From an uncultured Ignavibacteria bacterium (lineage in GTDB: Bacteria > Zixibacteria > MSB-5A5 > RBG-16-43-9): a stretch of DNA of 64,000 nt. Within the stretch, counting starts at the first letter, position 1. The number at the start of each line of letters is the position of its first letter. Positions 4,449 through 48,152 of this stretch are shown piece by piece. The DNA lies in the NCBI GenBank assembly GCA_964511075.1, contig CAZEDM010000008.1, forward strand, positions 34,470 through 98,469, given 5' to 3'. Below the pieces are notes generated by a model that ran no database searches, was not told where the DNA came from, and saw only the letters and a list, made by a program, of their open reading frames with translations. The position numbers were made by a program, and so were the translations under genes.

Positions 4449-4566
4449 CTAATTCGCTCCTCTTTGATCCTCAACAGCTAAATGGCTTAAAAGATATAGA
4501 CATCAGAACTCAGTGCAAAACCTAATATAGCTTGTCTGTGAGGGGAGTATTTATTAATTCAAGAAT

Positions 4567-4690
4567 ATGCTTGACTTAAGATAAATTCCTGAATGGGCTT
4601 ACCTTTGATTTTATAATATAGTCAGTTGCGAAACTCGTCCAGTGCGGGGTATTTTAAGTTATTGTGGTTTAATAACTTAAGCTTAGGTTA
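4567..4690 (+). repeat. Copy 1 of a ~120-nt conserved non-coding element (begins ATGCTTGAC...). Second copy at 8942-9060
   Basis: About 80% identity over ~80 nt with the second copy by manual alignment, weaker similarity for another ~45 nt. No ORF covers it. Sits in a 750-bp gene-free region. Confidence 0.4.
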
Positions 4691-5193: not shown

Positions 5194-7653
5194 ATGGATA
5201 GAAGTGTTATAACTGCTGAGGAAGCAAAAAAAGCAAGCTTAAAGGAATTATTACAAAAGCTCTCAGCAAACACAAAAGGACTTTCTTCTTCAGAAGCAAG
5301 GGATCGGCTTAAGCTGTACGGTCCTAATGAGATCCCTGAGAAAAAAGTCAATCCCATACTTAAACTATTAAGATACTTCTGGGGTCCTATTCCCTGGATG
5401 ATCGAGGTTGCCGCCATCCTCTCGGTGCTGGTACGCCATTGGCCCGATTTTTTCATCATCCTAGCTTTGCTTTTTGTGAACGCTGTCGTGGGCTTCTGGG
5501 AGGAATTCAAGGCGGGCAACACGATTGCCGCGCTAAAGGCAAAGTTGGCCTTGAAAGCTCGGGTTAAACGGGATGATGCCTGGGGCACAATCCCTGCACG
5601 TGAATTAGTTCCGGGAGATATAATCAGGCTGCGAATCGGTGATATTGTGCCAGCCGACGCCAGATTGCTGGATGGCGATCCGGTTCAGGTGGACCAATCG
5701 GCTCTTACCGGCGAGTCACTGCCGGTGACGCACAAGACGGGTGATGTCGTCTATTCCGGTTCCATAATCAGGCAGGGGGAAATCGATTCGCTTATCTATG
5801 CTATCGGGACAGACACCTATTTCGGCAAAACCGCTCACCTTGTGGAAGAAGCTCACACCGTAAGCCATTTTCAGCGTGCCGTTTTGAAGATCGGAGACTA
5901 TCTTATCGTTGTAGCTCTGATCCTGGTGATCTTGATCCTGTCAGTGGCTCTTTTTCGTGGTGATAATATGCTCACGACCCTTGAATTTGCGTTGATCTTG
6001 ACGGTGGCCGCCATACCCGTAGCCATGCCAACGGTGTTATCGGTCACCATGGCAGTAGGTGCCCGGCTGCTGGCTAAGAGACAGGCAATCGTAAGTCGGT
6101 TAGCCAGTATCGAGGAGATGGCAGGTATAGACGTATTGTGTTCTGATAAGACCGGCACTTTAACTCAAAATAAACTGTCCTTGGGAGATCCTGCGGGGGT
6201 TGTCGGTGTAAGTCGCGATCAGATAATCCTCAGTGCAGCGTTGGCATCACGGGCAGAGGATCAAGACCCTATCGATTTAGCCGTGCTCAGTGGCCTTAAA
6301 GACGACCAGCAGCAGGCCGGATACCAGATCCTTCATTTCATGCCATTTGACCCGGTTCACAAGCGCACGGAGGCCACGGTGAAGGGACCGGGCGGGGAGA
6401 CCTTTAAAGTGACCAAAGGTGCACCGCAGGTGGTCTTGGAGCTGGCGGCCAATGCGGCACAGGTTCGATCTCAGGTCGAGAAAGCGGTAGGAGAATTTGC
6501 AGTACGCGGTTTCCGCTCTCTGGGCGTGGCCCGCACGGACCAGCATAGCCAATGGCAGTTTTTAGGTGTGATTCCATTATACGACCCACCTAGGGAAGAT
6601 TCAAAAACCACCATCAAAACCGCAGGAGAGATGGGTGTAAAAGTCAAGATGGTCACCGGGGATCAGGTGGCCATAGCGAAAGAGACAGCCCGGCAGTTGG
6701 ACCTGGGTACAGATATCCTGGATGCAGCGCTCTTTGCAGATACCAAGCATCACGAGACCGGTCAGCTCGCCAACGCCATCGAGCAGTCTGACGGCTTTGC
6801 TCAGGTCTTCCCCGAGCATAAATATCACATTGTGGATGTGCTTCAGCAACGAGGCCATATCGTTGGTATGACTGGCGATGGTGTCAACGATGCCCCAGCG
6901 CTAAAGGAGGCTGATGCCGGTATTGCAGTTTCCGGAGCAACCGATGCTGCGCGCAGCGCGGCGGATATCGTCCTTTTGACTCCGGGCCTCTCAGTGATAA
7001 TTGATGCCATCAAGGAAAGCCGCAAGATCTTTCAACGAATGGGCAGCTATGCAACCTATCGTATTGCAGAGACCATCCGGGTGTTGTTGTTCATGACCCT
7101 TTCCATCTTAGTTTTTAACTTCTATCCGGTGACCGCTGTGATGATCGTCTTGTTGGCACTGCTTAATGACGGTGCCATCTTGTCCATCGCTTATGATCAT
7201 GTTCGTTATTCCAATAAACCTGAGGTATGGAAAATGACTGAGGTGTTAAGCATAGCCACGGTTCTTGGCATAATGGGAGTATTTGCCTCCTTTGGTTTAT
7301 TTTACCTGGGCGAAAGAGTTTTCCACCTCAACCGAGAAGTCATACAGTCTCTGATGTACCTTAAACTCTCGGTAGCAGGTCACCTGACCATCTTTATCAC
7401 ACGGACCCGAGGATCTTTTTGGTCCTTCCGCCCTGCGCCGATCCTGATAGGAGCAGTCAGCGGAACACAACTGGTAGCGACCTTAATTGCCACCTTCGGT
7501 CTATTTATGGCCCCCATCGGTTGGAAATGGGCACTGTTTGTCTGGGGCTATGCCCTGGCATGGTTTCTGGTGAATGACAGGGTCAAACTGGCAGCATACC
7601 GGATTTTCGATCATCGTCAGCCGGGCTTGCTGACAAAGACGGACAAAAGATGA
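5194..7653 (+). CDS. P-type cation-transporting ATPase, P3A (plasma-membrane H+-ATPase-like) type
   Basis: Phosphorylation motif CSDKTGTLT, hinge motif TGDGVNDAPAL, plus KGAP and MVTGD motifs. N-terminus resembles fungal/plant/archaeal H+-ATPases. 819 aa. Confidence 0.85.
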   Translation: MDRSVITAEEAKKASLKELLQKLSANTKGLSSSEARDRLKLYGPNEIPEKKVNPILKLLRYFWGPIPWMIEVAAILSVLVRHWPDFFIILALLFVNAVVGFWEEFKAGNTIAALKAKLALKARVKRDDAWGTIPARELVPGDIIRLRIGDIVPADARLLDGDPVQVDQSALTGESLPVTHKTGDVVYSGSIIRQGEIDSLIYAIGTDTYFGKTAHLVEEAHTVSHFQRAVLKIGDYLIVVALILVILILSVALFRGDNMLTTLEFALILTVAAIPVAMPTVLSVTMAVGARLLAKRQAIVSRLASIEEMAGIDVLCSDKTGTLTQNKLSLGDPAGVVGVSRDQIILSAALASRAEDQDPIDLAVLSGLKDDQQQAGYQILHFMPFDPVHKRTEATVKGPGGETFKVTKGAPQVVLELAANAAQVRSQVEKAVGEFAVRGFRSLGVARTDQHSQWQFLGVIPLYDPPREDSKTTIKTAGEMGVKVKMVTGDQVAIAKETARQLDLGTDILDAALFADTKHHETGQLANAIEQSDGFAQVFPEHKYHIVDVLQQRGHIVGMTGDGVNDAPALKEADAGIAVSGATDAARSAADIVLLTPGLSVIIDAIKESRKIFQRMGSYATYRIAETIRVLLFMTLSILVFNFYPVTAVMIVLLALLNDGAILSIAYDHVRYSNKPEVWKMTEVLSIATVLGIMGVFASFGLFYLGERVFHLNREVIQSLMYLKLSVAGHLTIFITRTRGSFWSFRPAPILIGAVSGTQLVATLIATFGLFMAPIGWKWALFVWGYALAWFLVNDRVKLAAYRIFDHRQPGLLTKTDKR

Positions 7654-7818
7654 GCCGGCGATTTCAATACTGCTTTGAGCTGTTGTCTTGGGAGATGAAT
7701 TTAGCTGTTCACCTGGAACGGCTATACAGGCCATACCCACAGCAATAAAACCTAATTTTTTAATGCTGGGGCAAAGCTAATACCCAAAGCGACAAAATGA
7801 AGCGTAAAAGGAGTAAAA

Positions 7819-8376
7819 ATGTCGGGAAACTTGAATCGTAAAAACAAAGATAAAACAAGCCGAAGCACAAACATCCCCCAGACTGCCATCAGATCCTTGA
7901 TTGCCGACCTGAGAAGTAATGACGGAATGCTACGCCAGCGATCACGCCAGTCCCTGGTAGCTATTGGGAAACCGGCCGTCGCCTACCTGGTAAAACTGAT
8001 GAGAGACGTAAATGATCAGGTTCGGTGGGAAGCGACGAAAGCGTTGGGTGACATTGGCGATCCGGAAACTGCACCTGCTCTGACAGAGGTTCTGGAGGAC
8101 GAGGAGTTCGATGTCCGCTGGCTGGCAGCTGAGGGCCTGATCGCTCTGGGACGTAAAGGATTAGCCCCATTGCTCAAGGCATTGACGGAACGTCCGCAAT
8201 CGGTCTGGTTGCGAGAGGGGGCACATCACGTTCTTCACAATTTGGCAAAGGCGGGTCCTGATAAAAGGGTGGCATCTTTGCTGCAGGCTCTCGAAAGCGT
8301 CGAGCCCGAAATCGATATCCCCCCGGCAGCACACAAGCTTCTAAGCGCCCTGGGAAAAAAAGAGAGGAAAAACTAA
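7819..8376 (+). CDS. HEAT / PBS-lyase-like repeat protein
   Basis: Repeated LGDIGDPETAPAL...D.VRW.AAEAL-type HEAT-like repeats. Confidence 0.6.
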   Translation: MSGNLNRKNKDKTSRSTNIPQTAIRSLIADLRSNDGMLRQRSRQSLVAIGKPAVAYLVKLMRDVNDQVRWEATKALGDIGDPETAPALTEVLEDEEFDVRWLAAEGLIALGRKGLAPLLKALTERPQSVWLREGAHHVLHNLAKAGPDKRVASLLQALESVEPEIDIPPAAHKLLSALGKKERKN

Positions 8377-8941
8377 TGACTTTAGAGAATACTCTTTTGA
8401 CCTGATCGCCAGCAGCTCCAATTCTCTGCTCTGTTAAAGAAACAATATTCTGAAAGAACAGTAAATACACTTCTGAAATTTAGTAGAACAGAATCTACTA
8501 AGAGAGAGTTCCTAAAAGAAATAAAGATGTAAAAAGCGTAAACAGAAGCTGCACCTGTTGCATTATTTGCCCCCCCCGGTGGGCTAAGCAGGTGAGAGAA
8601 AATAGAAAGAACGCAATATCGAGTAAATGATCCACGAATTAAATATTTAATGGAAAAATCAAAAAGCCTGCTTGGTAGGGGTTTAATATTAAGTTAGAAG
8701 CAAAAAGAATCAAAGATTAATCTGTCCCGTATTTCGCTCCAGTTTAAAGTTAGTATATCAGGCTGGACTGAGGGTTAAGAATCTTGAAGAATCATTGTTG
8801 AACTATTCGGACTGCTGCACTCCGCTCACCAGAAAACAGTCAGTAAAACAGGCGAAAGCAAGGAACCACAGTGACGTAGCGCTATATTTTGGTGATCCGG
8901 TCTCGTTGATCGGAGAAGATGGGCATCTGTCATTTCAAAAA

Positions 8942-9060
8942 AATGCTTGACCTAAGGTAAATTTCTGAATAAGCTTACCTTTGATGTTATGATAAAGCCA
9001 GTTGAGAAACTCGCCCAGTGCCAGCTCATAACCTATTGGATGGTAATGACTTAAGGACAA
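8942..9060 (+). repeat. Copy 2 of the ~120-nt conserved non-coding element
   Basis: Aligns with 4567-4690 in the same orientation. A shorter shared box (TAGCTTGTCT.TG...CAAGAAT) lies upstream of copy 1 (4527-4566) but downstream of copy 2 (9131-9160). Confidence 0.4.
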
Positions 9061-9732: not shown

Positions 9733-11394
9733 TTGAAAGGAGTGGTTATGCATTCAAACAAAAGACAATTTAAAATTCAGCACTCCTGGCATTGGATGGT
9801 TGGTTTTTTAGCATTTCTCTGGGTTTTACTAAGAAGCGGTACAAACCCCAAGCGGTTAACCTATCCTTGCCAGAGGGCAGCCATGCCCTTTGCTGCAAAT
9901 TGGTTTCTGGCAGTGATTGCATTTTTTGTGGGGAGTATATTTTTACGAAGATTTGTCAAGTTTTCCGGGGTACTGATTCTGATAGGGGGGGTTATCTGGT
10001 TCACAGGTGCCTTGCCCGAACTTACCAGATCCCAGCTAAATTGCCCAGGGACCCTTCCAGTATGGGAAGTTCCTGATCCCGTGTCAACCGTTTTCGTGAT
10101 GGATTCCCTTCCCCCGACAACTGGTTCTCTTGCTGCGGGTGATGCAACTGTTCCCGACGAGTACCTTTCAGATCCTGCTATGGATTCCATACTTGCCATG
10201 ATGGAGACAAAAGACATTTTTCTTCACAAAACCGCATCCCAGCCGTCCGGCATAGTGGGGACTGAGGATATCGTGATCATCAAGGGGAATTTTCAATGGA
10301 CCAGCAGGAACACCACCAGCACCGACCGCATAAAAGGATTGATCTGGCAGATATTAAATCACCCGGATGGGTTTTCCGGCGAGATTCTGATATGCGACAA
10401 TACGCAGGATATTGGCACGGGAATCAACCAGGCGGACAATAATTCCGAGGATACAGCTCAGTCCCTTCCGGATGTGGTGAGTACCTTTTATGCTAAAGGA
10501 TATCCGGTATATTATCTGGACTGGGCCTATCTCTGGAGTGTAGTGGCATCAGAATATTCTACTGGTGATTATGATGACGGGTATGTCTATGATACGCTGA
10601 CAAAGATATCCTACCCCAAGTTTCGATCCCCATCGGAGGATTACTATATTTCTCTGCGCTACGGGATCTGGGATTCGCTTTCGGCTGAGTATGATTCCTC
10701 CCGTCTCTGCATAATTGATTTCCCCGTGTTAAAATCTCACATGATGGCTGGTGCTACAATCGCTGTTAAAAACTGGATAGGAGTGCTTACTACAGCATAT
10801 GCTAATCAGCGCTATGGGAGCTGGGATAATATGCATTACTTTTATTTCTGGGGTGATTATGCCCTAGTCGCACGGCTGATCGCCGTAACCTACCCCAAAC
10901 TCTCAATAGTTGATGCGACCTGGACTTCAACCTATAATGCGAATGATCTTGACTGGCTGGCAAATACGAATATGCTGGTAGCTTCCACCGACCCTGTTGC
11001 GGCTTCCTGGTATGCAGCAAAATTCATACTCACACCTGTTGCTCGTTTTCGTCATTATACCAATCCAGAAACTGGTTATTATAGTACGACTCTGAATAGA
11101 TGGACAGCCTACCTGAGCGATTCAGCAGGAGTATCCTGCACAAAAGATTCTGCTGAAATCTCTGTTTATGACCGGAGAGTTATGGGCCCCTTATACACTT
11201 GCGGTGATACTGACGGAGATGAAGAGTTAAATGTTTCAGACGTGATATATTTAATCAACTACCTGTTCAAGGGAGGTTCTCCTCCTGATCCAGCCCAGAC
11301 TGGTGATGTAAATTGCGATGGTGAAACAACAGTGTCTGATGCGATCTTTTTAATCAATTATCTTTTCAAAGGCGGGGGGGAACCATGTAGCTAA
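9733..11394 (+). CDS. Membrane-anchored protein with a C-terminal duplicated dockerin-like (type I, Ca-binding) module
   Basis: N-terminal hydrophobic helices. C-terminus has GDTDGDEELNVSDVIYLINYLFKGGSPP and GDVNCDGETTVSDAIFLINYLFKGGGEPCS, matching D-x-[DN]-x-D-G-x5-D dockerin repeats. Central domain unassigned. Confidence 0.6.
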   Translation: MKGVVMHSNKRQFKIQHSWHWMVGFLAFLWVLLRSGTNPKRLTYPCQRAAMPFAANWFLAVIAFFVGSIFLRRFVKFSGVLILIGGVIWFTGALPELTRSQLNCPGTLPVWEVPDPVSTVFVMDSLPPTTGSLAAGDATVPDEYLSDPAMDSILAMMETKDIFLHKTASQPSGIVGTEDIVIIKGNFQWTSRNTTSTDRIKGLIWQILNHPDGFSGEILICDNTQDIGTGINQADNNSEDTAQSLPDVVSTFYAKGYPVYYLDWAYLWSVVASEYSTGDYDDGYVYDTLTKISYPKFRSPSEDYYISLRYGIWDSLSAEYDSSRLCIIDFPVLKSHMMAGATIAVKNWIGVLTTAYANQRYGSWDNMHYFYFWGDYALVARLIAVTYPKLSIVDATWTSTYNANDLDWLANTNMLVASTDPVAASWYAAKFILTPVARFRHYTNPETGYYSTTLNRWTAYLSDSAGVSCTKDSAEISVYDRRVMGPLYTCGDTDGDEELNVSDVIYLINYLFKGGSPPDPAQTGDVNCDGETTVSDAIFLINYLFKGGGEPCS

Positions 11395-15385: not shown

Positions 15386-16897
15386 ATGTCAAAACTCCTT
15401 TTGATTTTCCTCCTTATATTTCTTTTTAGCATACCTCTCTTTGCCCAATCCGTTGACACTGCCTGGGTGAGAAGATATACCGGTTTAATAAATGGAGACG
15501 ATAGAGCAACTGATTTAGTCCTGGATAGTGTGGGGAACATCTACCTGACCGGATACTGTGAGCAAAATGTGAGTGGAAATATCAATACCGGTTTTGTTAC
15601 TATAAAGTACTATCCGGATGGGAATACTGCCTGGATAAGAAGCTATGCCGGGGAGGATAACTCAGACGATTATGCTGAGGCTTTAGCCCTCGATGATTAC
15701 GGCAATGTGTACGTGACTGGTGCGGGCGATGTAAATTCAGATGCCGGATCCTACAGTGGCTACCTCACAATAAAATATTTACCTAACGGAGATACTGCCT
15801 GGGTGAGATACTTCAGGGAAGAGGTAACGGAAAAAAACCTGGGTGCTTATGCTATAGCTGTGGATAATTGCGGAAACGTCTACGTGACAGGAACAGGTGC
15901 CACTATAGGATACGACACCGACGGAGACTGCCTATGGATTGACTCTTCCGACTTTGTTGGCCAGGACATAGCCATAGATGATTCCGCTTACGTCTATGTT
16001 GCCGGTTACAGTAAAGGGGATGGAACATATTATGATTATGTCACGGTGAAATATTCTCCTGAGGGGGATACTGTCTGGACGAGAAGATATAATGGGCCGG
16101 GAAATGGCGATGACCGAGCCTGTGCAGTAGCTGTTGACGATTCAGGTAAAGTGTACGTGACCGGTTCAAGCTTAAGTCTGGGAACATCCTATGATTATGC
16201 CACCGTCAAATATCACTCCAACGGGGATATCTGCTGGGTTAGGAGGTATAATGGGCCGGCTGATGAGTGGGAACAAGCATCTGCCTTGGCGGTAGACGAC
16301 TCAGGCAACGTATATGTAACCGGGTTCAGTCAGGGGACAGGGACATCTCACGATTATGCTACAATTAAATACCACTCCAGTGGAGATACAGCCTGGCTGA
16401 GAAGATATAATGGGGCTGCAAACTCCTCTGACCGGGCCTGGGATATTGCTATTGATGATCTGGGTAATTCCTATGTGACAGGCTATAGTTCAGACACGGA
16501 AAGCTCAGACGATTATGCTACCGTTAAATACAGTCCTAAAGGAGAACGACTCTGGGTAGAGAGATACAACGGGCCGGCTAATTCCTTTGATCGCCCCTCT
16601 GCTATAGCTGTGGATAAGCTCAAAAATGTATATGTGGCTGGTTGGAGTAATGGAGGCGAGACCTCTAAGGATTATACCACTATAAAGTATATTCAGTTTT
16701 TGCGGGGAGATACTGACAGTAACGGGTATCTATCCTTCTCGGATATAGTCTATCTGATAAATTATCTTTTCAAATTCGGCTCCCTTCCGTATCCCTATCA
16801 GTCAGGAGACACAAATTGTGACGGTAAGGTCAGCCTTTCTGATGCGGTGTATCTGAAGGCATATCTTTTAAAAATGGGGGCACCGCCCTGTAGATGA
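15386..16897 (+). CDS. Secreted SBBP beta-propeller repeat protein with C-terminal dockerin-like module
   Basis: Signal peptide. About 8 repeats of the pattern Y.T.KY...G...W.RRYNG....D.A.A.AVD.SGNVYVTG. C-terminus GDTDSNGYLSFSDIVYLINYLFKFG / GDTNCDGKVSLSDAVYLKAYLLKMGAPPCR. Confidence 0.7.
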   Translation: MSKLLLIFLLIFLFSIPLFAQSVDTAWVRRYTGLINGDDRATDLVLDSVGNIYLTGYCEQNVSGNINTGFVTIKYYPDGNTAWIRSYAGEDNSDDYAEALALDDYGNVYVTGAGDVNSDAGSYSGYLTIKYLPNGDTAWVRYFREEVTEKNLGAYAIAVDNCGNVYVTGTGATIGYDTDGDCLWIDSSDFVGQDIAIDDSAYVYVAGYSKGDGTYYDYVTVKYSPEGDTVWTRRYNGPGNGDDRACAVAVDDSGKVYVTGSSLSLGTSYDYATVKYHSNGDICWVRRYNGPADEWEQASALAVDDSGNVYVTGFSQGTGTSHDYATIKYHSSGDTAWLRRYNGAANSSDRAWDIAIDDLGNSYVTGYSSDTESSDDYATVKYSPKGERLWVERYNGPANSFDRPSAIAVDKLKNVYVAGWSNGGETSKDYTTIKYIQFLRGDTDSNGYLSFSDIVYLINYLFKFGSLPYPYQSGDTNCDGKVSLSDAVYLKAYLLKMGAPPCR

Positions 16898-17124: not shown

Positions 17125-18666
17125 ATGGATTCAAAAAATTTATCTTTTGGAAGAGGTATGGGCTTGCTCTCCATTTTATTTGCGCTCGTAGGTTTTATCT
17201 ATGCCCCGCTTATAATCGCAGATGAGGATCCAAAAGATGCTGAAAGATCTTCTCAGGAGGAGCAAACTCTTATAGCTCCCGCTGACACCGTTATCTGTGG
17301 TGATGTAAATGGAGTTGGAGTTCCACCCTACGGGAACCTGACCCTGGCAGACGCCGTTTATCTGTGGAGCTTTCTTTTCAGAGACGGGCCCTCCCCAGTG
17401 CCGGACACATGCGTGGGCGATGCAAATGGTGATGGTACTGTTAGTGTTACTGACTGGATGGTTCCAATCAAATATCTGTACAAGGATACAGATCCTCCTG
17501 TAGATTACTGCTGTGATTCTGCCACACAGAGACAGCTTCCAGCCATTCAGGCACCTGGGAATACGGCAGTGTATGCAGATACTTTATATAATTTCATGAG
17601 GGTAGAGAATACCGTTGCCAGACCAGGCGCCCAGGGACACGTGATCAACGTCTATGGTTCGTGGAATGCAGAGCTGGGAGCATACGGTATGGTGTTGCTT
17701 TTCGATACCAGCAAGATCGATATAGTTGAGGTTTCCCCTACGGGGACAGCAGGCGAAGAGGGTATGCTTATTTCCAATTATCTGGGAAATTACTCACCTT
17801 TGAAAGCTGCTCTCCATCTGGATAATTACATCCCTGCTGACTCGGGCATCTTATTCAAAATCGTGGTTAATGTAAAAGAGACTGCTCCTCTGGGCGAGAC
17901 AGACCTGATTTTAGTTAACCAGCCTGGAACACCGCCTTGGATGTGTGATTATGCTTTGTCTGACGGGATTAATGATATATTTCCAGAATTGATGTCTGGA
18001 ACATTGAGCATAGAGGTGATCTGCGGTGACATTAATGGAGATGGTCTGGTGTCGGCCTCAGATGTGGTATATCTGCTCAATTATCTCTTCAAGGGAGGTT
18101 CTCCGCCGCTCTGCGCACCTGGACCTTATCTTGCCTGTGGAGACGTTAATTCCGATGGCCAGGTATCGATGAGTGATGTTGTCTATCTGATCAGCTATCT
18201 TTTCAAAGGGGGACCTCAGCCAGATTGCTCCTCTCCCATTGGCACTCTTATTCATCACTCTGATTGCAAAGGATTCGCCCTGAGAAGCTCTGTGGACAGT
18301 ATTTCACCAGATCAGGGCTGTATGGAATATTATTATGATGGGGAGGGTATTCTTGAGCTCAGACATATCAATGCAGGATTTAACTGCTGTCCAGATGATA
18401 TAATAGCGGATATCAGGTTGGAGGGCAATGTCATCTACATAGAGGAAAGAGAGTCTCTGAGTAACCCGTGTCATTGCCTTTGTCTTTTTGATTTAGACCT
18501 CCGGGTCATTAACCTGGAGCCCGGAGAGTATGTGATAAGTGTAATAGAACCTTATGTAGCTGAGGATGAGGCGAAATTAGAATTTCCGGTTAGTCTTTCT
18601 TTTTCACCTGTAGAGGGGGTATACTGTGTTGGAAGAAGCAATTACCCCTGGGGCGTCTGGGAATAA
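17125..18666 (+). CDS. Secreted dockerin-cohesin-dockerin protein (mini-scaffoldin-like) with C-terminal Cys-rich domain
   Basis: Signal peptide. N-terminal dockerin-like pair (CGDVNGVG... / GDANGDGTVSVTD...). Central segment ...TVARPGAQGHVINVYGSW...LLFDTSKIDIVEVSPTGT...SGILFKIVVNVKETAPLGETDL matches the cohesin profile. Second dockerin pair (GDINGDGLVSASDVVYLLNYLFKGGSPP / GDVNSDGQVSMSDVVYLISYLFKGGPQP). Confidence 0.55.
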   Translation: MDSKNLSFGRGMGLLSILFALVGFIYAPLIIADEDPKDAERSSQEEQTLIAPADTVICGDVNGVGVPPYGNLTLADAVYLWSFLFRDGPSPVPDTCVGDANGDGTVSVTDWMVPIKYLYKDTDPPVDYCCDSATQRQLPAIQAPGNTAVYADTLYNFMRVENTVARPGAQGHVINVYGSWNAELGAYGMVLLFDTSKIDIVEVSPTGTAGEEGMLISNYLGNYSPLKAALHLDNYIPADSGILFKIVVNVKETAPLGETDLILVNQPGTPPWMCDYALSDGINDIFPELMSGTLSIEVICGDINGDGLVSASDVVYLLNYLFKGGSPPLCAPGPYLACGDVNSDGQVSMSDVVYLISYLFKGGPQPDCSSPIGTLIHHSDCKGFALRSSVDSISPDQGCMEYYYDGEGILELRHINAGFNCCPDDIIADIRLEGNVIYIEERESLSNPCHCLCLFDLDLRVINLEPGEYVISVIEPYVAEDEAKLEFPVSLSFSPVEGVYCVGRSNYPWGVWE

Positions 18667-21852: not shown

Positions 21853-22347
21853 CAGGCTATGCTCCCCTTATCTTTCTCTCTTTAGCGTTCCTAATTTTTT
21901 TCTAATCTCTCAAATTCGAGCCATTTAAGATAATTCTCAAATATCATCTGACAGATAGAAGAGTTTTTTCCTCTGTAGAAGAAAATATGCGAAAAGAGGC
22001 TCCAACATATATCTCTTCTCAGTTTATTATACCTCAGGCTATACCCTTATCAGGTTTTTCGAAAGGGTATAACCACTATACCTGAAAAGACTTAATAGGA
22101 TCTACTGTGTAAGACTTCGATTGATAAGATTGACAAATTGCCCCCCGTTTTTTAAGATAAATAAGATCACGGCATTCTTCTTTATTTATCGGAATTATGA
22201 AGAATAAGATTAGCTAACTCCGTTTGTGAAAAGAACATCCGGAATGAACTGCAGAGAGCATTTTGAAAAAGCAGGAACGGCTTTCAAACCCGTGCCTACA
22301 GATTTCAACCTAACCCTGACCCACTCCTAAGGGGAGAGGGGATGACA

Positions 22348-23595
22348 TTACAATCCGTATTTCTCTATAATCTCTTTCTTCTTCTTTCCCAGGATATCGT
22401 ATTTCCCGCCAATCCTGGTAAAGGCTTCGATGGCTCTATCTAAGTGCTCTTTCTCGTGGTCGGCGGAGAGCTGGACCCTGATTCTTGCCTCACCTCTGGG
22501 AACAACCGGGAAGAAGAATCCAATCACATAGATGCCCTCATAATATAAGTCCTTAGCGAAATCAGATGCCAGCTTTGCATTGTAAAGCATTATGGGAACA
22601 ATTGGATGAGTACCCTCCTTGATGTCAAAGCCAGCCTCGGTCATCTTTTTTCTGAAATAGAGGGTATTGTTCTCCAACTTATCCCTTCTCTCGGTGGTTT
22701 TGGAGATGAGGTCTAAGACCTTGCTGGCAGCAGAGACGATCACCGGAGGGACTGTATTGGAGAAAAGATAAGGTCTGGCTCTCTGACGCAGTAAATCCAC
22801 TATTTCCTTTCTACCGCTGACACCGCCGCCTGAAGCACCTCCCAAGGCTTTGCCCAGGGTGGTGGTGATTATGTCAATTCTACCTACTACCCCGCAATGC
22901 TCGTGTGTCCCCCTGCCGGTCTTTCCCATAAAGCCGGTGGAATGAGAATCGTCCACCAAGACCATAGCGTCATATTTATCCGCCAGCTCGCAGATCTGAT
23001 CCAGTTTAGCGATATCCCCATCCATAGAGAAAACACCATCAGTTATAATCATCCTGAAACGGTTATCCTGGGTATCTTTTAGCTTTTCCTCCAGGTGCTC
23101 CATATTGGAGTGCTTATAAATATATTGTTGTGCCTTGCAAAGCCTCATCCCGTCCACAATTGAGGCGTGGACCAATTTATCTGCAATCATAGCATCTTCT
23201 CTGTCCAGGAGCACATCAAAAACCCCGGCATTGGCATCCATACAGGAGGGGAAAAGGATGGTATCCTCTGTGCCCAAGAACTCGCTTAATTTTCTTTCCA
23301 GCTCACGGTGAACATCCTGGGTTCCGCAGATAAACCTGACTGAGGACATACCATAACCCCTGTCATCCAAGCCCTGATGTGCTGCCCTGATCACATCCGG
23401 ATGGCTGGAAAGTCCCAGATAGTTATTGGCACAGAAATTAATTACCTCTTTTTCCGGAGCTCCTTCCGGAAACTCCACCTTGATATCCGCCCCCTGAGGA
23501 GAATGAATATACCTTTCCTCTTTGCTCAGACCCGCTTCTTTAATCCCCTTTAGCTCGTTTTGATAGAAATCTTTTGACTTACTACTATATGCCAT
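22348..23595 (-). CDS. PLP-dependent alpha-oxoamine synthase (glycine C-acetyltransferase / 8-amino-7-oxononanoate synthase / serine palmitoyltransferase family)
   Basis: Family layout with PLP-lysine motif TLGKALGG and DDSHSTGF. 415 aa. Confidence 0.8.
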
Positions 23596-23727
23596 AAAAC
23601 CTCCTGCAGAATTCTTGATAAAATCATCTTTTAAAAAGCTTATCGGAGTACAAATCTTTAGAGTTGCCAGAATTATTTTGTGGGGATTAGAGGCAAAGCT
23701 AAAGCTTTACACTCCATACTTTCCTCT

Positions 23728-23979
23728 TTATATCTTCACAAACTCCTTGAGTAGAATAACGATTTTATTTACCGTATCAAAAGTTTCCGGCGTTGCCTTG
23801 GCATCCGGTATCTGGATTTTGTATTTTTTCTCCAGAAAAGTTTTCAAAGAAACCATAGAGAAAGAATCCACTATGCCGGAGGAGATCAAAGGGGTGTCCT
23901 CCTTGACCTCCATATCGCTATCCTCTTCCAGAAACTCTTTTTTTACATAATCGATGATGATTTTTTTTGCATCTTCCAT
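23728..23979 (-). CDS. Acyl carrier protein-like
   Basis: 83 aa, acidic, phosphopantetheine attachment motif GIVDSFSMV (DS*F). Confidence 0.65.
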   Translation of the reverse strand: MEDAKKIIIDYVKKEFLEEDSDMEVKEDTPLISSGIVDSFSMVSLKTFLEKKYKIQIPDAKATPETFDTVNKIVILLKEFVKI

Positions 23980-24002
23980 CTGTTACTCCTTTCTGCCTGT
24001 GT

Positions 24003-24120
24003 ATTATCGTAGTGCGATCCTGCTTGTCCCGCAGTAAGCGGGATTAGGGTCGCTTCAGGCGAGGCTGAAAGTCTTCGCCAGGATCCTGTGGACAAGACCT
24101 TGACGGCCTCGCACTACAGG
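24003..24120 (-). other. Highly structured 118-nt intercistronic element between the ligase and ACP genes
   Basis: 9-bp terminal inverted repeat GTAGTGCGA...TCGCACTAC encloses internal hairpins (CCCGCagtaaGCGGG; GGCGAGgctgaaagtcTTCGCC). 60% GC in a lower-GC context. Seen in sequence only. Confidence 0.3.
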
Positions 24121-25878
24121 TCAATCGTTTTCCAAGGTTGATAAATCCCCAACCGGCTCGCCTCTTTCCTGTGCCCGAAGCAGGCGCCGCATGATCTTTC
24201 CGCTTCTGGTTTTGGGCAGAGATTCAACAAACTCTATCTCCTGGGGCATTGCCAAAGGGGACAGTCTCTTACGGATGAAGTTCATAATATCCAATTCCAG
24301 GTCATCCGATTTTTCAAAGCCCGGTTTTAAAGCTACAAAGGCCTTGACCACCTCCATATTTATTGGATCTGGTTTCCCAATAGCGGCTGATTCTGCTACT
24401 GCCTGATGCTCTAAAAGGGCAGATTCCACCTCAAAGGGGCTGACCAGGTGTCCGGCAGTATTAATGACATCATCATCCCTTCCCACAAACCAGAAATACC
24501 CATCCTTGTCGATGCTGGACCTGTCTCCAGTCAGATACCAGCCGTTTTTAAATTTACTCTCATAGGTAAGGGGGTTATTCCAGTAAGCCCTGAACATAGA
24601 GGGCCAGCCCGGTTTAAGGGCAATCAAACCCACAGAGCCAATTTTATTGATAGGATTGTAGCTGGAGTCAAGCACAGTTGCCACAATTCCGGGAAAAGGT
24701 TTGCCCATGGAGCCGGGACGAACCTCCATCCCAGGGTAATTCGAGATGACAATAGCACCGGTCTCGGTCTGCCAGTAAGTATCATGGAAAGGAAGTCCGT
24801 AAACCTTCTTGGACCATATGACTGCTTCCGCATTCAATGGTTCCCCTACGCTGCATAGATGTCTTAAAGAGGACAGGTCAAACCTCTTCACAATCTCCTC
24901 TCCTCCCTTCATCAGAAGCCTTATGGCGGTAGGAGCGGAATACCAAACTGTTATCTTATGCCTCTGGATTAAACCATACCATTTCTCCGGCTGGAACCCG
25001 CTATCCAGGACCACCTGGGTGATACCCAGGCTCCACGGTCCAATAATTCCATAGGAGGTGCCGGTAACCCAGCCCGGGTCTGCAGTACACCAGTAGATAT
25101 CATCAGCTCCTAAATCCAGGCACCATTTCGTAGTTAAAGATTGCGCCAGTATAGAGTAGTGGACATGCAGAGCTCCTTTGGGTTTTCCAGTCGTGCCTGA
25201 GGTATAATGCAGAACCGAGGGTGTCTCAAAAGTGGTGGGGAAGATGTCAAACTCCTCCACCCTGTGAGCTTTTCTGACTGAATATGCTATCTCCTTTTCC
25301 TGAGGTTTGAAATTTTCATCATCCGTGGCAATGATGATCTTCTTGAGCTCAGGCAGCTGGTTTTTTATCCTCCTTATCCTTTTAATAAGTTTTGGAATGG
25401 TAACTATTGCAGAGGCTTTGCCATCTTCCAGACGGGTTAAAAGGGAATCCTCCCCAAAGGCTGAGAATAGTGGTGCTACTATTCCGCCCATCTTCAAGGT
25501 TCCCAGAAAAGAGAAATATAGGTCCGGCACCCGGTCCATAAAAACGAAGACCCTTTCTCCTTCTCTGATTCCTAAATCCCTTAGAAGCCGGGCGTAATTA
25601 TTAGAGTAGACCCTCAGATCATCAAAGGTGAATCTCTGTACCTCTCTGGTATACCCCTCCCAGATCATGGCAGGCTTTTTTCCATTTCCCTGCTGGCAGA
25701 TTCTGTCTGAACAGTAATAACCGATATTAAAGGGTAAGTCCTCTTTATAGCCTAATTCCTTCAGGGCAAATGGCCACTCAAAGTTTTTATATCTTTGATC
25801 ATAAGAACCTATGTTGCTCATTAGAATGACTCCTTCTTTCCTGAATAGTGTGCTTAAAAAACGTGGAAAAGATAACAT
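24121..25878 (-). CDS. AMP-dependent synthetase/ligase (acyl-CoA or acyl-ACP synthetase)
   Basis: AMP-binding motif YTSGTTGKPKG, plus GEP...TGD and SGKIMRR motifs. 585 aa. Confidence 0.8.
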   Translation of the reverse strand: MLSFPRFLSTLFRKEGVILMSNIGSYDQRYKNFEWPFALKELGYKEDLPFNIGYYCSDRICQQGNGKKPAMIWEGYTREVQRFTFDDLRVYSNNYARLLRDLGIREGERVFVFMDRVPDLYFSFLGTLKMGGIVAPLFSAFGEDSLLTRLEDGKASAIVTIPKLIKRIRRIKNQLPELKKIIIATDDENFKPQEKEIAYSVRKAHRVEEFDIFPTTFETPSVLHYTSGTTGKPKGALHVHYSILAQSLTTKWCLDLGADDIYWCTADPGWVTGTSYGIIGPWSLGITQVVLDSGFQPEKWYGLIQRHKITVWYSAPTAIRLLMKGGEEIVKRFDLSSLRHLCSVGEPLNAEAVIWSKKVYGLPFHDTYWQTETGAIVISNYPGMEVRPGSMGKPFPGIVATVLDSSYNPINKIGSVGLIALKPGWPSMFRAYWNNPLTYESKFKNGWYLTGDRSSIDKDGYFWFVGRDDDVINTAGHLVSPFEVESALLEHQAVAESAAIGKPDPINMEVVKAFVALKPGFEKSDDLELDIMNFIRKRLSPLAMPQEIEFVESLPKTRSGKIMRRLLRAQERGEPVGDLSTLEND

Positions 25879-25992
25879 CTTAAGAGGATTTTAGCAAGTC
25901 AAAAAACGGGTAGAATGCGGTTATCTTAGATTATCTACCATTCACTATGAACCATAAACCAAAAAAATCCCCCAGGGGAAGAAAAGCTTTTC

Positions 25993-26050
25993 TGAGGATG
26001 TACGAGATTGAACTACCACCCGCCTGCTCAAAAGGCAGATACTCGTATTG
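25993..26050 (-). pseudogene. Degenerate tRNA-Lys-like remnant (anticodon arm and 3' part only)
   Basis: TCTGCC-TTTTGAG-CAGGC matches the anticodon arm of the intact tRNA-Lys at 47934-48005. No D-arm or 5' acceptor. Part of the direct repeat 25690-26050. Confidence 0.35.
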
Positions 26051-26365: not shown

Positions 26366-27202
26366 TCACCAACCCTGTTTACTTGTCACCATCAGTTCAT
26401 TTGCCAACCTGAAGCATACTTTGTCAGGCAAGACTTGACGGAGATATTTTATGTTAACTCCCCCATCCGGAAGGGTATGGCCTATTTGGTTAACCTCTAC
26501 ACCTCTATGCCTGAGGAAGAAATTCAGATGTTGAGCCTCTTCCAGCAAGTATCTTCTGGCACTGACTCCAGTGAAGAACTTCTCAAGTTCAGTGCGGCTT
26601 TCTGTCCGCTCTATTGTTGCTAACCAGCCCTTCCCATATGGGTCCTCTTGTACCAGCTCCGGATGTTGAGCCAGTCCGGAATTTATTTGAACCAGATGTC
26701 CAGAGAGAGGGGTAGCTAAGAAAACCATTCCGGCAGAAGAGAGTATCTTTCCAAATACCTGATCCTGGGTAAGATCATTCTCCAGCTCGGAGAATTGCAA
26801 CTTAGCGGGTAGCGGAAGGACATATGCCAAAAGTTCGTCAACTCCTATTCTCCATTTCCGCCCTTCCAACGGTTGAGCCCATAGGTGAGAGGGGTGTAAA
26901 TAGACTCCTTCTCTCATCTCAACGGGCGTGAAGGTGAAAAATAGGAGGGGAGGATTTTTCCCACTTCCAGGGACGGGGCATTCTTCAGATTCTCTTAGAG
27001 ACTGAGATCTGTGCTGTTCGGCTTTTGATCGTATCTTTCTCGAACCGACATGAGAGCGCATGGCTTTGTCTAACTCACAGTGTTCACAGTCATAGTTAAT
27101 CGGACATAATTTATAGGAGATCACTCCTGCGGTCATCCAGATACAACGACCGTCCTGGTGGACAGGCTGGGCATCTTGTTTTTTTGATATATTCTTTTTC
27201 AT
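26366..27202 (-). CDS. Glycine-cleavage H-protein-like (lipoyl-domain fold) protein with N-terminal Cys4 extension; lipoyl-lysine position not conserved
   Basis: C-terminus PLSGHLVQINSGLAQHPELVQEDPYGKGWLATIE aligns with GcvH PVSGEVVEVNEAL..PELVN.DPYGEGWL. N-terminus carries C-x13-C-x5-C-x2-C. Last gene of the cytochrome/FeS/NrfD operon. Confidence 0.5.
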   Translation of the reverse strand: MKKNISKKQDAQPVHQDGRCIWMTAGVISYKLCPINYDCEHCELDKAMRSHVGSRKIRSKAEQHRSQSLRESEECPVPGSGKNPPLLFFTFTPVEMREGVYLHPSHLWAQPLEGRKWRIGVDELLAYVLPLPAKLQFSELENDLTQDQVFGKILSSAGMVFLATPLSGHLVQINSGLAQHPELVQEDPYGKGWLATIERTESRTELEKFFTGVSARRYLLEEAQHLNFFLRHRGVEVNQIGHTLPDGGVNIKYLRQVLPDKVCFRLANELMVTSKQGW

Positions 27203-30574: not shown

Positions 30575-31246
30575 TTATTTTATATTAAAAAACTCTCTGG
30601 CTACCTTATTCCATTGTTGTATGGTTAATTCATCCCCTAAATCAGGTTTGATCTCGCCTCCCTCCTGTAACACTGGAAATTCAGCCGGGACTAATACTGA
30701 TATTAAATGCTCTTTGGCAGCCTGATTCCAACGTTTAAGCAGTTCACCAGAAAGAAGATTTCTCAGTTCTCGAGAGAGATTAATCGGTTCAATTTTTAAA
30801 ATCCAGTTCTTTTCCGGGTCCTCACGATTCAGAAGGATTGGCTCCTCAGCCAGTTTTTTATTGACCTCCACAACCCTTCCACTAATAGGGGAGGCCTGAA
30901 CCAATTCCCTATTGTCTCTTTTTATCTTCCAGGCGCTGCTTCCCTGGTATATTCTGTCCCCACGCTTAGGCAGTTCTATCTCTTTAACCGATCCGAAAAC
31001 CGAAGAGGTGAACTTATCCATGCCAATATTCACCAGGTTAGGCTGGATCACCTCTGCCCAGGTATGGTTTGGATGTGTGAACACTCCCCTGATCATCCTG
31101 GAAGCTTCAGTCATAAATTGTCTCACCGGGCGGTAGACAGGGGTATTTAACAATCTCCAGAAAAGAATGATTATAAACATGAAGGCGATAGCTATCAGGT
31201 ACTCATTAGCTTTGGTAGCAAGTAAGAATTCTTGAAGAGTTTGCAT
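30575..31246 (-). CDS. Membrane-anchored GcvH-like (lipoyl-domain fold) protein, paralog A
   Basis: N-terminal transmembrane helix. HTWAEV...IGMDKFTSSVFGSV...PISGRVVEVNKKL...NWILKIE aligns with GcvH (HEWV...VGITD.AQ...PVSG.VV.VN..L...GWL.K). No Lys at the lipoylation position. Confidence 0.5.
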   Translation of the reverse strand: MQTLQEFLLATKANEYLIAIAFMFIIILFWRLLNTPVYRPVRQFMTEASRMIRGVFTHPNHTWAEVIQPNLVNIGMDKFTSSVFGSVKEIELPKRGDRIYQGSSAWKIKRDNRELVQASPISGRVVEVNKKLAEEPILLNREDPEKNWILKIEPINLSRELRNLLSGELLKRWNQAAKEHLISVLVPAEFPVLQEGGEIKPDLGDELTIQQWNKVAREFFNIK

Positions 31247-31312: not shown

Positions 31313-31972
31313 TTAATCCGTTGAGTCAAAAAACTCCCGGTTGACCTTCTCCCACTGTTCGGAGGTTAATTCGTTCCCCAGGTCAGATTTAATTTCCCCG
31401 CCCTCCTGCAGGACAGGAAATTCTGCCGTGGTCAAAGTAGCTACGAGCTGATCCTTAACCGCCTGATTCCAGCGCTTCAGGATGGTTCCGTGTAGCAGGT
31501 TCTGGAGCTCTCCTTTCATTCTATCCGGTCTGATTTTTAATATCCAATTCCTTTCAGTATCCTTCTGGGTTAAAAGCTTAGGATTATCCGCCAGCTCCTG
31601 GTTTAAAGCCACCACCGTGCCGCTAATGGGTGAAGTCTGAGTCAACTCTCGGTTTCCCCTTCTTAATAACCAGGCTTTTTCTCCCTGATGAATCCGGCTT
31701 CCCACAGGAGGAAGAGATAACGCCTCGACTGAGCCGAAAACTGATGTGGTGAAATCGTCCACTCCCACTGTAATTAAACTGGGATCGAGAACCCTGACCC
31801 AAGCATGACCTGGGTGCACGAAAATTCCCTCTAAGGCGGAGGGGAGCTTCAACTTGGTGGTCAAGGGGGTTTTCTCTTCTGCTGGGGCAACGGCCTTTCT
31901 TTGACGCCAGATACCAATTCCTATGGCTAAAGCCACGAAAAGTAAAATAAGGATTACCGACATTTCAATCAC
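31313..31972 (-). CDS. Membrane-anchored GcvH-like protein, paralog B (tandem duplicate of 30575-31246)
   Basis: About 45% identical to paralog A by eye. HAWVRV...VGVDDFTTSVFGSV...PISGTVVALNQEL...NWILKIR. Confidence 0.5.
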   Translation of the reverse strand: MIEMSVILILLFVALAIGIGIWRQRKAVAPAEEKTPLTTKLKLPSALEGIFVHPGHAWVRVLDPSLITVGVDDFTTSVFGSVEALSLPPVGSRIHQGEKAWLLRRGNRELTQTSPISGTVVALNQELADNPKLLTQKDTERNWILKIRPDRMKGELQNLLHGTILKRWNQAVKDQLVATLTTAEFPVLQEGGEIKSDLGNELTSEQWEKVNREFFDSTD

Positions 31973-47451: not shown

Positions 47452-47627
47452 TCCATATATGAGAAAAGACCAGGTTAGATAAAAATCTCCGGATTTTTTA
47501 AGTTGTATCTGACTCTCCGGAATTAGTTCCTGCATAAAAATATATCAATTTGCGTCATCTGGACTGTTTCAGCTGGTTCACGTTCACGATGTAAAGTCGA
47601 AGCCGATTTTTTTAATTTCCCTACTGG

Positions 47628-47815
47628 CAGATTCTGTCTAGGCAGTCACAACCGATATTTAAAGGGGAGCCTTGCAGGTAGCCTAATTCCTCCAGGACAA
47701 ATGGCTACTCAAAGTTTTTATATCTTTCCTCATAGGAAATATGTTGCTCATTGGAATAACTCCTTGTTTCCTGAATTAGGTGCTTTAAAAACGGGGAAGA
47801 GGTAATATACTAAGA
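47628..47815 (-). pseudogene. Degenerate 5' fragment of an AMP-ligase gene, paralogous to the start of 24121-25878
   Basis: About 80% nucleotide identity to 25700-25880. In-frame TAG where the intact gene has TGG (E-W-P becomes E-stop-P), and TAA upstream of the internal Met. No continuing ORF. Confidence 0.5.
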
Positions 47816-47896
47816 AAGTTTATACAAGCCCAAAAAACGGCAGAATATGGTTTTTAGATTATCTACCATCCGCTATGAACCAGAGACCATTAGTCA

Positions 47897-47932
47897 AAAA
47901 AATCCTCTCACAAAGAGTGAGAGGATTTTTTT
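47897..47932. terminator. Bidirectional rho-independent terminator (A7-stem-T7) immediately 3' of tRNA-Lys
   Basis: AAAAAAATCCTCTCACaaagaGTGAGAGGATTTTTTT. Confidence 0.55.
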
Positions 47933-47933
47933 C

Positions 47934-48005
47934 TGAGGGTGGATGGGATCGAACCATCGGCCACCTGCTTAAAAGGCAGATGCTCTACCACTGAGCTACA
48001 CCCCC
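47934..48005 (-). tRNA. tRNA-Lys (anticodon TTT)
   Basis: Manually folded. Acceptor GGGGGTG/CACCCTC, D-arm GCTC-AGTGGTA-GAGC, anticodon arm TCTGC-CTTTTAA-GCAGG (positions 34-36 = TTT), T-arm GATGG-TTCGATC-CCATC, discriminator A. No encoded CCA. Confidence 0.85.
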
Positions 48006-48152
48006 AAATTTCCTTTAAAAGAGCTATACGCTGAAAATTGTCGAATCAAAGAGTTTTAGCTCTCCAAGACAACTAAAATATAGTTTGAAACTCTTTTGTC
48101 AAGTGGAAAGGTAACAGAGCAAAGGCGAGGAGACCTCGCCCCTACGGAAGAC

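Follow-up and report, generated by a model that had tools for sequence, protein, structure and literature searches.

In a 64,000-nucleotide stretch of DNA from an uncultured bacterium of the Zixibacteria lineage (contig CAZEDM010000008.1, positions 34,470 to 98,469; hereafter the window), three co-directional open reading frames (ORFs) on the minus strand at 22348–25878 encode, in this order, an AMP-forming ligase of the Acs type, a stand-alone carrier protein and a Kbl-type alpha-oxoamine synthase. This triad is an undescribed and very widely conserved variant of Acs/Kbl chemistry, for which it probably uses a carrier protein of its own. Both Kbl and Acs are known from textbooks as coenzyme A (CoA) enzymes, and public pipelines would label the three products 'glycine C-acetyltransferase', 'acetate-CoA ligase' and 'acyl carrier protein', respectively, and go no further. 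Synteny and clade-specific changes point to a carrier-dependent version of this chemistry across much of the uncultured anaerobic FCB/Acidobacteriota. If so, current reconstructions of threonine, glycine and acetate flow for these sediment and subsurface lineages would be incomplete, and the enzymology of the alpha-oxoamine synthases and ANL enzymes would gain a new short-chain, carrier-dependent pair.

The ligase gene lies at 24121–25821. A mechanical ORF call gives 24121–25878 (585 amino acids), and the start is probably Met20 at 25821, which is preceded by an AGGAG ribosome-binding site and leaves a product of 566 amino acids; the homologues have 566–567. This start is the sole coordinate correction to an earlier, sequence-only reading of the locus, which had proposed the order adenylating enzyme, carrier and alpha-oxoamine synthase, and all three ORFs were indeed present on the minus strand. 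A spacer of 141 nt separates the ligase gene from that of the acyl carrier protein (ACP; 23728–23979, minus strand), an 83-amino-acid protein of ACP- or peptidyl-carrier-like type with Ser39, in a DSF motif, as the presumed phosphopantetheine attachment site. An AT-rich spacer of 132 nt with an AGGAGG ribosome-binding site (23596–23727) leads to the synthase gene (22348–23595, minus strand), which encodes 415 amino acids with an Aminotran_1_2 domain and belongs to the ACP-linked Kbl clade described below (KblA).

We scanned one genome per species for the carrier and found its family in at least 569 species-representative genomes, at 64–87% identity. Neighbourhoods were taken from the best 80 of these genomes, with approximately 7 kb on each side of the carrier gene. 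The 80 loci span Zixibacteria, Ignavibacteria, WOR-3, Aminicenantes and other Acidobacteriota, Chrysiogenales, Calditrichota, Bacteroidota, Chlorobiaceae, Fibrobacterota, Latescibacterota, Gemmatimonadota, Riflebacteria and Eisenbacteria. A Kbl-like gene essentially always followed the ACP gene (80 of 80 loci), with a median gap of 12 nt, and this junction stays at about 7–25 nt across phyla, compared with which the 132-nt spacer of the window is unusually long. The ligase gene preceded the ACP gene in most loci, at a median gap of 53 nt, and 65 of the 71 measurable spacers were no longer than 300 nt; where at least 5 kb of flank was available on both sides, 44 of 50 loci contained it. The retention of this order across phyla bears out the triad as a real functional unit.

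The neighbouring genes also recur. Holo-ACP synthase (AcpS) is encoded directly upstream of the ligase and in the same direction in 28 of the 80 loci (TIGR00516, 93.7 bits against a cutoff of 59.8), an indirect hint that the carrier may be phosphopantetheinylated. Based on clustering of neighbouring ORFs, Tdh or a Tdh-like Zn-dehydrogenase lies upstream in 18 loci, including some that have no second Kbl, and the Tdh copy of locus L006 passes NF003808 (411 against 380 bits). A second, tail-less canonical Kbl is found downstream in about a third of the loci, and a glycine-oxidase-like flavoprotein accompanies a few of the WOR-3 loci. Genes for ceramide reductase and ceramide synthase were not among the recurrent neighbour clusters of the 80 neighbourhoods, which covered approximately 7 kb to either side. 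The fullest form of the module is tdh–acpS–ligase–acp–kblA(–kblB). In the window, the 495-nt gap downstream of the synthase gene contains no remnant of a second Kbl.

On its sequence, the synthase is of Kbl type, that is, a predicted member of the glycine C-acetyltransferase family. It passed both Kbl equivalog models of NCBIfam, with 622.2 bits for TIGR01822 (cutoff 493) and 613.2 bits for NF005394 (cutoff 460), and it fell below the cutoffs of all three serine palmitoyltransferase (SPT) models (335.6 against 640, 281.5 against 500 and 232.1 against 670). It also failed the NCBIfam models for BioF, ALAS and CqsA. Searches against solved structures agreed, with about 500 bits for the Kbls 3tqx, 7v58 and 1fc4 compared with 253 for SPT and about 100 for CqsA. 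The identity to solved Kbls is 55–60%, and the lysine that binds pyridoxal 5'-phosphate (PLP) and the catalytic motifs, aligned with these structures, are all present.

Within this family, the module synthases stand apart. The ACP-linked Kbls group as a single clade when placed in a tree alongside the second copies and four solved Kbls; their identity is 75% among themselves, 57% to the second copies and 55% to the four solved Kbls. They share a conserved C-terminal tail of 13 residues, ILHK(T/S)KQEII(D/E)xYG, which is missing from the second copies and from the solved Kbls; in the window it occupies residues about 402–415, encoded at 22351–22392 on the minus strand. Eleven core positions are private to the clade. 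Among them, Val replaces the Asn that precedes the PLP-stacking His (100% of the ACP-linked clade against 0% of the others), and Met replaces the Phe of SCFDAN; these two swaps occur in at least 97% of the clade and in none of 24 canonical or second-copy Kbls. Features that are invariant in canonical Kbls, namely, this Asn, this Phe and the lack of a C-terminal extension, are not kept in the window synthase.

The ligase has the Pfam domains AMP-binding and AMP-binding_C and scored 779.4 bits with NF003313, the acetate-CoA ligase equivalog (cutoff 729). Its closest structure is 9g79, an Acs of 572 amino acids (587 bits). The motifs GWVTG, SVGEP, DTYWQTETG and PKTRSGKIMRR are conserved and correspond to the acetate-pocket positions and the Lys609 motif of Salmonella enterica Acs, where GWVTG, SVGEP and the Trp of xWQTETG reportedly form the acetate pocket (Gulick 2003 and Ingram-Smith 2006). 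The pocket Trp (equivalent to Trp414) and the rest of the pocket are kept in all 63 module-linked ligases. By these motifs and scores, the enzyme is a ligase of the short-chain Acs type with an acetate pocket, and not a long-chain acyl-ACP synthetase.

One clade-wide change affects a position of known function in Acs. Where Acs has G(H/E)R(L/V)G, the ligase has GHLVSP, and Leu occupies the Arg526 position in all 63 module-linked ligases. Acs has three highly conserved arginines (191, 526 and 584 in S. enterica) on which the CoA-dependent formation of the thioester relies, and Arg526/528 is among them; saturation with CoA was not reached by the R528A variant, and kcat fell 130- to 326-fold in R528K and R528Q (PMC10455477). 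Position 191 of S. enterica Acs aligns to a Lys of the ligase, in a poorly aligned region.

The 83-amino-acid product is a carrier protein, as judged from its modelled fold and its conserved Ser, with the phosphopantetheine site presumed, and the earlier proposal of a dedicated carrier is upheld on these grounds. The motif GIVDSFSMVSLK is invariant in 20 homologues, and Ser39 lies at the start of helix II, before helix 42–53. An AlphaFold (AF2) model built from the 20 homologues had a mean confidence (pLDDT) of 86, and its top fold matches in the PDB were carrier proteins in all of the 50 listed cases (TM-score 0.6–0.85), the nearest, at TM-scores of 0.7–0.85, being PigG, DltC, PltL and the partner of the glycine:carrier-protein ligase. 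Named homologues are mostly from Zixibacteria. The protein scored below the gathering cutoff of the Pfam PP-binding model PF00550 (18.3 against 20.8 bits), and its best NCBIfam match, the OlsHI ornithine-lipid ACP (NF052616), was also below cutoff (56.5 against 130). The name of this model goes back to the OlsH/OlsI work; an identity as the OlsHI carrier was rejected on the score, and no GH3-like OlsH neighbour was found.

Given the cross-phylum synteny, the AcpS and Tdh neighbours, the clade-specific changes in both enzymes and the carrier fold, we propose, at what we judge to be even chances, that the dedicated carrier takes a short acyl thioester between the Acs-like ligase and the Kbl-like enzyme, in a module tied to threonine/glycine metabolism. 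The acyl group on the carrier would be a C2, possibly a C3, unit (acetyl or propionyl), and the carrier, rather than CoA, would be the thiol partner of one or both enzymes. The Kbl-like PLP enzyme would interconvert glycine plus the acetyl thioester with 2-amino-3-oxobutanoate. The flux could then run from threonine to glycine and acetyl-ACP, and on to acetate; alternatively, acetate and glycine could be joined to 2-amino-3-oxobutanoate, with threonine or aminoacetone as the later product. The nearest fold relatives of the carrier are stand-alone carriers charged by stand-alone adenylating enzymes (PigG/PigI, PltL/PltF, DltC/DltA and the partner of the glycine:carrier-protein ligase), which supports the proposed shuttle, and by analogy with all known pairs of this kind we lean weakly towards a ligase that charges the carrier.

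A broader form of the proposal, which we hold more tentatively and at somewhat less than even chances, is that a widespread ACP-dependent two-carbon branch in at least 569 species keeps an acetyl pool derived from threonine and glycine apart from acetyl-CoA. In this branch, an Acs-like ligase without Arg526 would be linked by the private carrier to a Kbl with a gained tail. The separate pool might serve ATP recovery by the reversed ligase, or a dedicated supply of 2-amino-3-oxobutanoate or aminoacetone.

Several observations weigh against a carrier-dependent shuttle. Both enzymes pass curated equivalog models of ordinary CoA-dependent enzymes, and Arg584 of Acs is retained in the module ligases. 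The equivalent of Arg526 (A8 motif) is also conserved in carrier-loading adenylation domains, so its loss is not a specific pointer to the carrier as acceptor. AcpS could be a housekeeping enzyme placed here by chance of operon history, and neither Tdh nor AcpS is encoded anywhere in the 64-kb window. About 10% of loci, chiefly those of Aminicenantes, lack an adjacent ligase gene, and each of the two spacers of the window (141 and 132 nt) has room for a promoter of its own. Literature searches for an Acs–ACP–Kbl cluster or an ACP-dependent Kbl found nothing relevant. A simpler account is ordinary CoA metabolism, in which a plain Acs and a plain Kbl are adjacent for co-regulation around acetyl units and the carrier is a passenger with an unrelated, regulatory or structural role. 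We consider this account rather unlikely, although by no means far-fetched. Scores above the curated Acs and Kbl cutoffs, the intact catalytic motifs, acetate pocket, Arg584 and Lys609 motif, and the matching names in public annotation (seen for the ACP) all fit it; it leaves unexplained, however, a carrier kept at 64–100% identity and 12 nt before one Kbl clade in many phyla, the private tail and near-active-site swaps of that clade, often with a canonical, tail-less Kbl next door, the universal loss of Arg526 from the ligases, and the AcpS gene directly upstream in 28 loci.

The sequence-only reading had pointed to a starter pathway of the aminolipid or sphingoid-base type. In its long-chain form, a fatty acid on a dedicated ACP would be condensed with serine or another amino acid, and this we regard as highly improbable. 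Bacteroidetes SPTs have historically been mis-annotated as Kbl, and a changed specificity is conceivable in view of the class-specific substitutions close to the active site. The gene order is that of the Caulobacter Spt–ACP–acyl-ACP-synthetase cluster, which was reportedly described by Stankeviciute et al. in 2022. However, the SPT models gave 232–336 bits against cutoffs of 500–670, compared with 622 against 493 for Kbl, and the 55–60% identity to solved Kbls speaks the same way. The ligase Trp that restricts Acs to acetate or propionate is present with the rest of the pocket in all 63 homologues. Reductase or ceramide-synthase-like clusters were missing from the surveyed neighbourhoods, where the recurring genes are those for Tdh, AcpS, a second Kbl and the glycine-oxidase-like flavoprotein. 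A lipid starter pathway is thus contradicted by the family scores, the short-chain, acetate-type ligase and the neighbours. Two findings had been named jointly as counter-evidence to it, a firm placement of the synthase with Kbl and a carrier without the conserved Ser; the former was found, and the Ser is conserved.

The 141-nt spacer between the ligase and ACP genes contains a GC-rich element with a 9 bp closing inverted repeat, which the sequence-only reading had noticed and which we confirmed as a unit of 109 nt (24009–24117, no strand assigned). On the plus strand, GTAGTGCGA (24009–24017) pairs with TCGCACTAC (24109–24117), and the GC content is 0.56, compared with about 0.35–0.45 in the adjoining non-coding DNA. 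Stable folding, also expected earlier, was observed on both strands. The spacer (146 nt as folded) reached −52.3 kcal/mol on the mRNA strand (z=−4.1, with none of 200 shuffles as good) and −59.9 kcal/mol on the other, and the 109-nt unit folded alone gave z-scores of −4.4 and −5.6 for the two strands. No T-run follows the element on the mRNA strand. A search with a 20-mer allowing three mismatches, a repeat search and blastn-short found this single copy in the 64-kb window.

The expected conservation in related genomes was not borne out. Among the close relatives, the ligase–ACP spacer has 61 nt and no element in loci L008/9, 154 nt of unrelated sequence in L005, 197 nt in L003/4, 255–265 nt in L001/2/10 and 776 nt, including a whole DUF559 gene, in L006/7. 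The core of the element is common to the window, L001/2/10 and L003/4, but with respect to the genes the copy of L003/4 lies the other way round. Other phyla lack the element, and in most of them the spacer is 14–60 nt long. The core was confined to this spacer in approximately 160 kb of Zixibacteria loci, as a locus-specific RNA would be, and a metagenome scan then led us to reject that interpretation.

The scan with the shared core returned 120 matches, many of them chance matches to a 17-base pattern, and we kept only those with extended similarity or a full unit. These comprise 30 canonical units in 29 contigs, none of which encodes the module. The repeat has about 51 nt and the form GTAGNGCGAGGC-TTTCA-GCCTCGC-N3-5-GCGACCC-TGAAA-GGGTCGCNCTAC, with its core shared by the window element. 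It is Y-shaped, with a GTAGN...NCTAC closing stem enclosing two hairpins of 7–8 bp that have TTTCA and TGAAA loops, and its fold is identical on both strands (−33.3 kcal/mol, z=−6.4). Representative copies, among loci L090–L209, are L155:9944–9994, L183:1453–1503 and 6902–6954, and L113:1600–1650; at least three contigs (L183, L105 and L147) have two copies or element-related segments. The copies lie in unrelated contexts and in both orientations, mostly at gene boundaries, and are prone to nested insertions; the ORF-context test is crude, since spurious 'embedded' calls arise from stop-to-stop ORFs wherever a contig has a high GC content. A clear compensatory change was detected at one closing-stem pair only, the rest being invariant, an invariance partly imposed by the search pattern. 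The sequence is nearly unchanged in low-GC and high-GC contigs, implying either that the repeat has spread between distant taxa or that its exact sequence is under strong selection. Compared with the canonical unit, both hairpin loops of the window copy are expanded, the first by a 34-nt insert and the second by a 27-nt replacement.

These observations indicate that a dispersed palindromic repeat inserted here in this lineage and that the element does not belong to the conserved design of the module; if it affects the transcript at all, it would do so incidentally and at most as a hairpin like those of repetitive extragenic palindromic (REP) sequences. The 51-nt Y-shaped repeat appears to be an undescribed dispersed element. 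Rfam gave no match in the window at the gathering score and nothing relevant on seven contigs with canonical copies at E-values up to 1, and a full-text literature search for the repeat sequence matched no paper. No associated transposase turned up, although no transposase search was made.

The sequence-only reading had taken the element to suggest mRNA processing or stability control within the operon. That a selected, operon-specific RNA (for processing, stability or attenuation) is present here is, in our judgement, quite unlikely. It would account for the stable fold and for the related sequence in the same spacer of three Zixibacteria lineages (the window, L001/2/10 and L003/4); a hairpin located here may also be of use, given that several other phyla have unrelated ones in the corresponding spacer. 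However, such an RNA is difficult to reconcile with the absence of the element from the close relatives L005 and L008/9 and with the short spacers of most phyla, with the inverted L003/4 copy, or with at least 29 contigs that carry the unit without the module, in many unrelated contexts. The equally good fold on both strands, the missing T-run, the lack of an Rfam family and the single covarying stem position argue in the same direction.

Other sequences were seen in the same spacer. In several phyla, unrelated hairpin-rich sequences have repeatedly landed or expanded there (L011, L012, L029, L036, L038, L040 and others). The DUF559 (Vsr-like endonuclease) gene of L006/L007, which represent one Zixibacteria lineage, lies at 7309–7680 (flanks 7225–8000), between hairpin repeats of the CCCTCTCCC...GGGAGAGGG type, and hairpins resembling these were seen in the spacer of L003 and, in the window, shortly past the Kbl stop codon, at about 22300–22345.

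Upstream of the operon, approximately 430 bp are present twice as direct repeats, at 25676–26046 and 47591–48006, with 77–89% identity. The duplicated stretch comprises the 3' part of tRNA-Lys, a terminator hairpin, the ligase leader and the first approximately 140 nt of the ligase gene; there is a stop codon in the distal ligase fragment. On the operon side, the ligase leader and promoter region (25822–25990, minus strand; duplicated at 47740–47889) is preceded by a terminator-like hairpin (25968–25982) and by a degenerate copy of the tRNA-Lys 3' part, located by alignment at 25994–26046 on the minus strand, which marks one end of an insertion of about 21.6 kb; the intact tRNA-Lys lies at 47933–48006. 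The block between the repeats (26047–47590) encodes multihaem cytochromes, an NrfD/4Fe-4S complex, cytochrome b, three GcvH-like proteins and CcmE/F. In the relative L005, tRNA-Lys lies immediately upstream of the ligase, so the block looks like a respiratory gene island inserted at the tRNA, and the insertion would have separated the operon from its ancestral tRNA-Lys neighbour. The ten largest ORFs of the block are respiratory or cytochrome genes, and there is no integrase among them.

The three GcvH-like paralogues (26366–27202, 30575–31246 and 31313–31972, minus strand) combine a glycine-cleavage-H-like domain with long N-terminal extensions and flank the NrfD, 4Fe-4S and multihaem cytochrome set, an unusual association for lipoyl-carrier domains. 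Elsewhere in the window, a 97-nt direct repeat with 82% identity occurs at 4549–4645 and 8925–9021, about 4.4 kb apart. Further repeats, at 15455–16641 and at 11236–11384, 16739–16788, 17449–17498 and 18058–18221, comprise a 159–171-nt periodic repeat in a large ORF region and a separate 50-nt repeat. The latter encodes SDV(V/I)YLINYLFKGG, which has a dockerin-like look, with two of its copies, at 18058–18107 and 18172–18221, in the ORF 17125–18666.

Compared with known systems, the module combines features of several. As in Tdh–Kbl threonine degradation (Escherichia coli kbl-tdh), the synthase passes TIGR01822, its PLP-Lys and catalytic motifs are intact and Tdh recurs nearby. Unlike in that system, the module synthase falls in a separate clade with a 13-residue tail and 11 private substitutions, and its gene has a carrier gene ahead of it in every case and that of an Acs-like ligase in most, often with a canonical Kbl also present. 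The module matches the Caulobacter-type sphingolipid starter cluster in its logic and in its gene order, which runs from adenylating enzyme through dedicated carrier to alpha-oxoamine synthase, but its synthase is of Kbl type, its ligase is of the short-chain Acs type and its neighbours encode Tdh and AcpS rather than ceramide enzymes.

The module ligase resembles AMP-forming acetyl-CoA synthetases (the Bacillus subtilis-type AcsA 9g79 and S. enterica Acs) in its pocket, Arg584 and PKTRSGKIMRR, and differs from them in the Leu that replaces Arg526 throughout the clade and in its linkage to a carrier protein. The nearest sequence and fold relatives of the carrier are found in DltA–DltC, PigI–PigG, PltF–PltL and the amino acid:carrier-protein ligase systems, and the carrier of the module lies next to a stand-alone adenylating enzyme; those pairs load amino acids, whereas the module has an acetate-type pocket and an alpha-oxoamine synthase downstream. 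As for the intergenic element, its family resembles REP sequences and miniature inverted-repeat transposable elements in being short, highly stable, imperfectly palindromic and present in unrelated contexts in both orientations. It differs from them in its three-way Y shape with two 7 bp hairpins, in its fixed TTTCA/TGAAA loops, in a near-constant sequence across GC classes and in its occurrence as one degenerate copy only in the 64-kb window.

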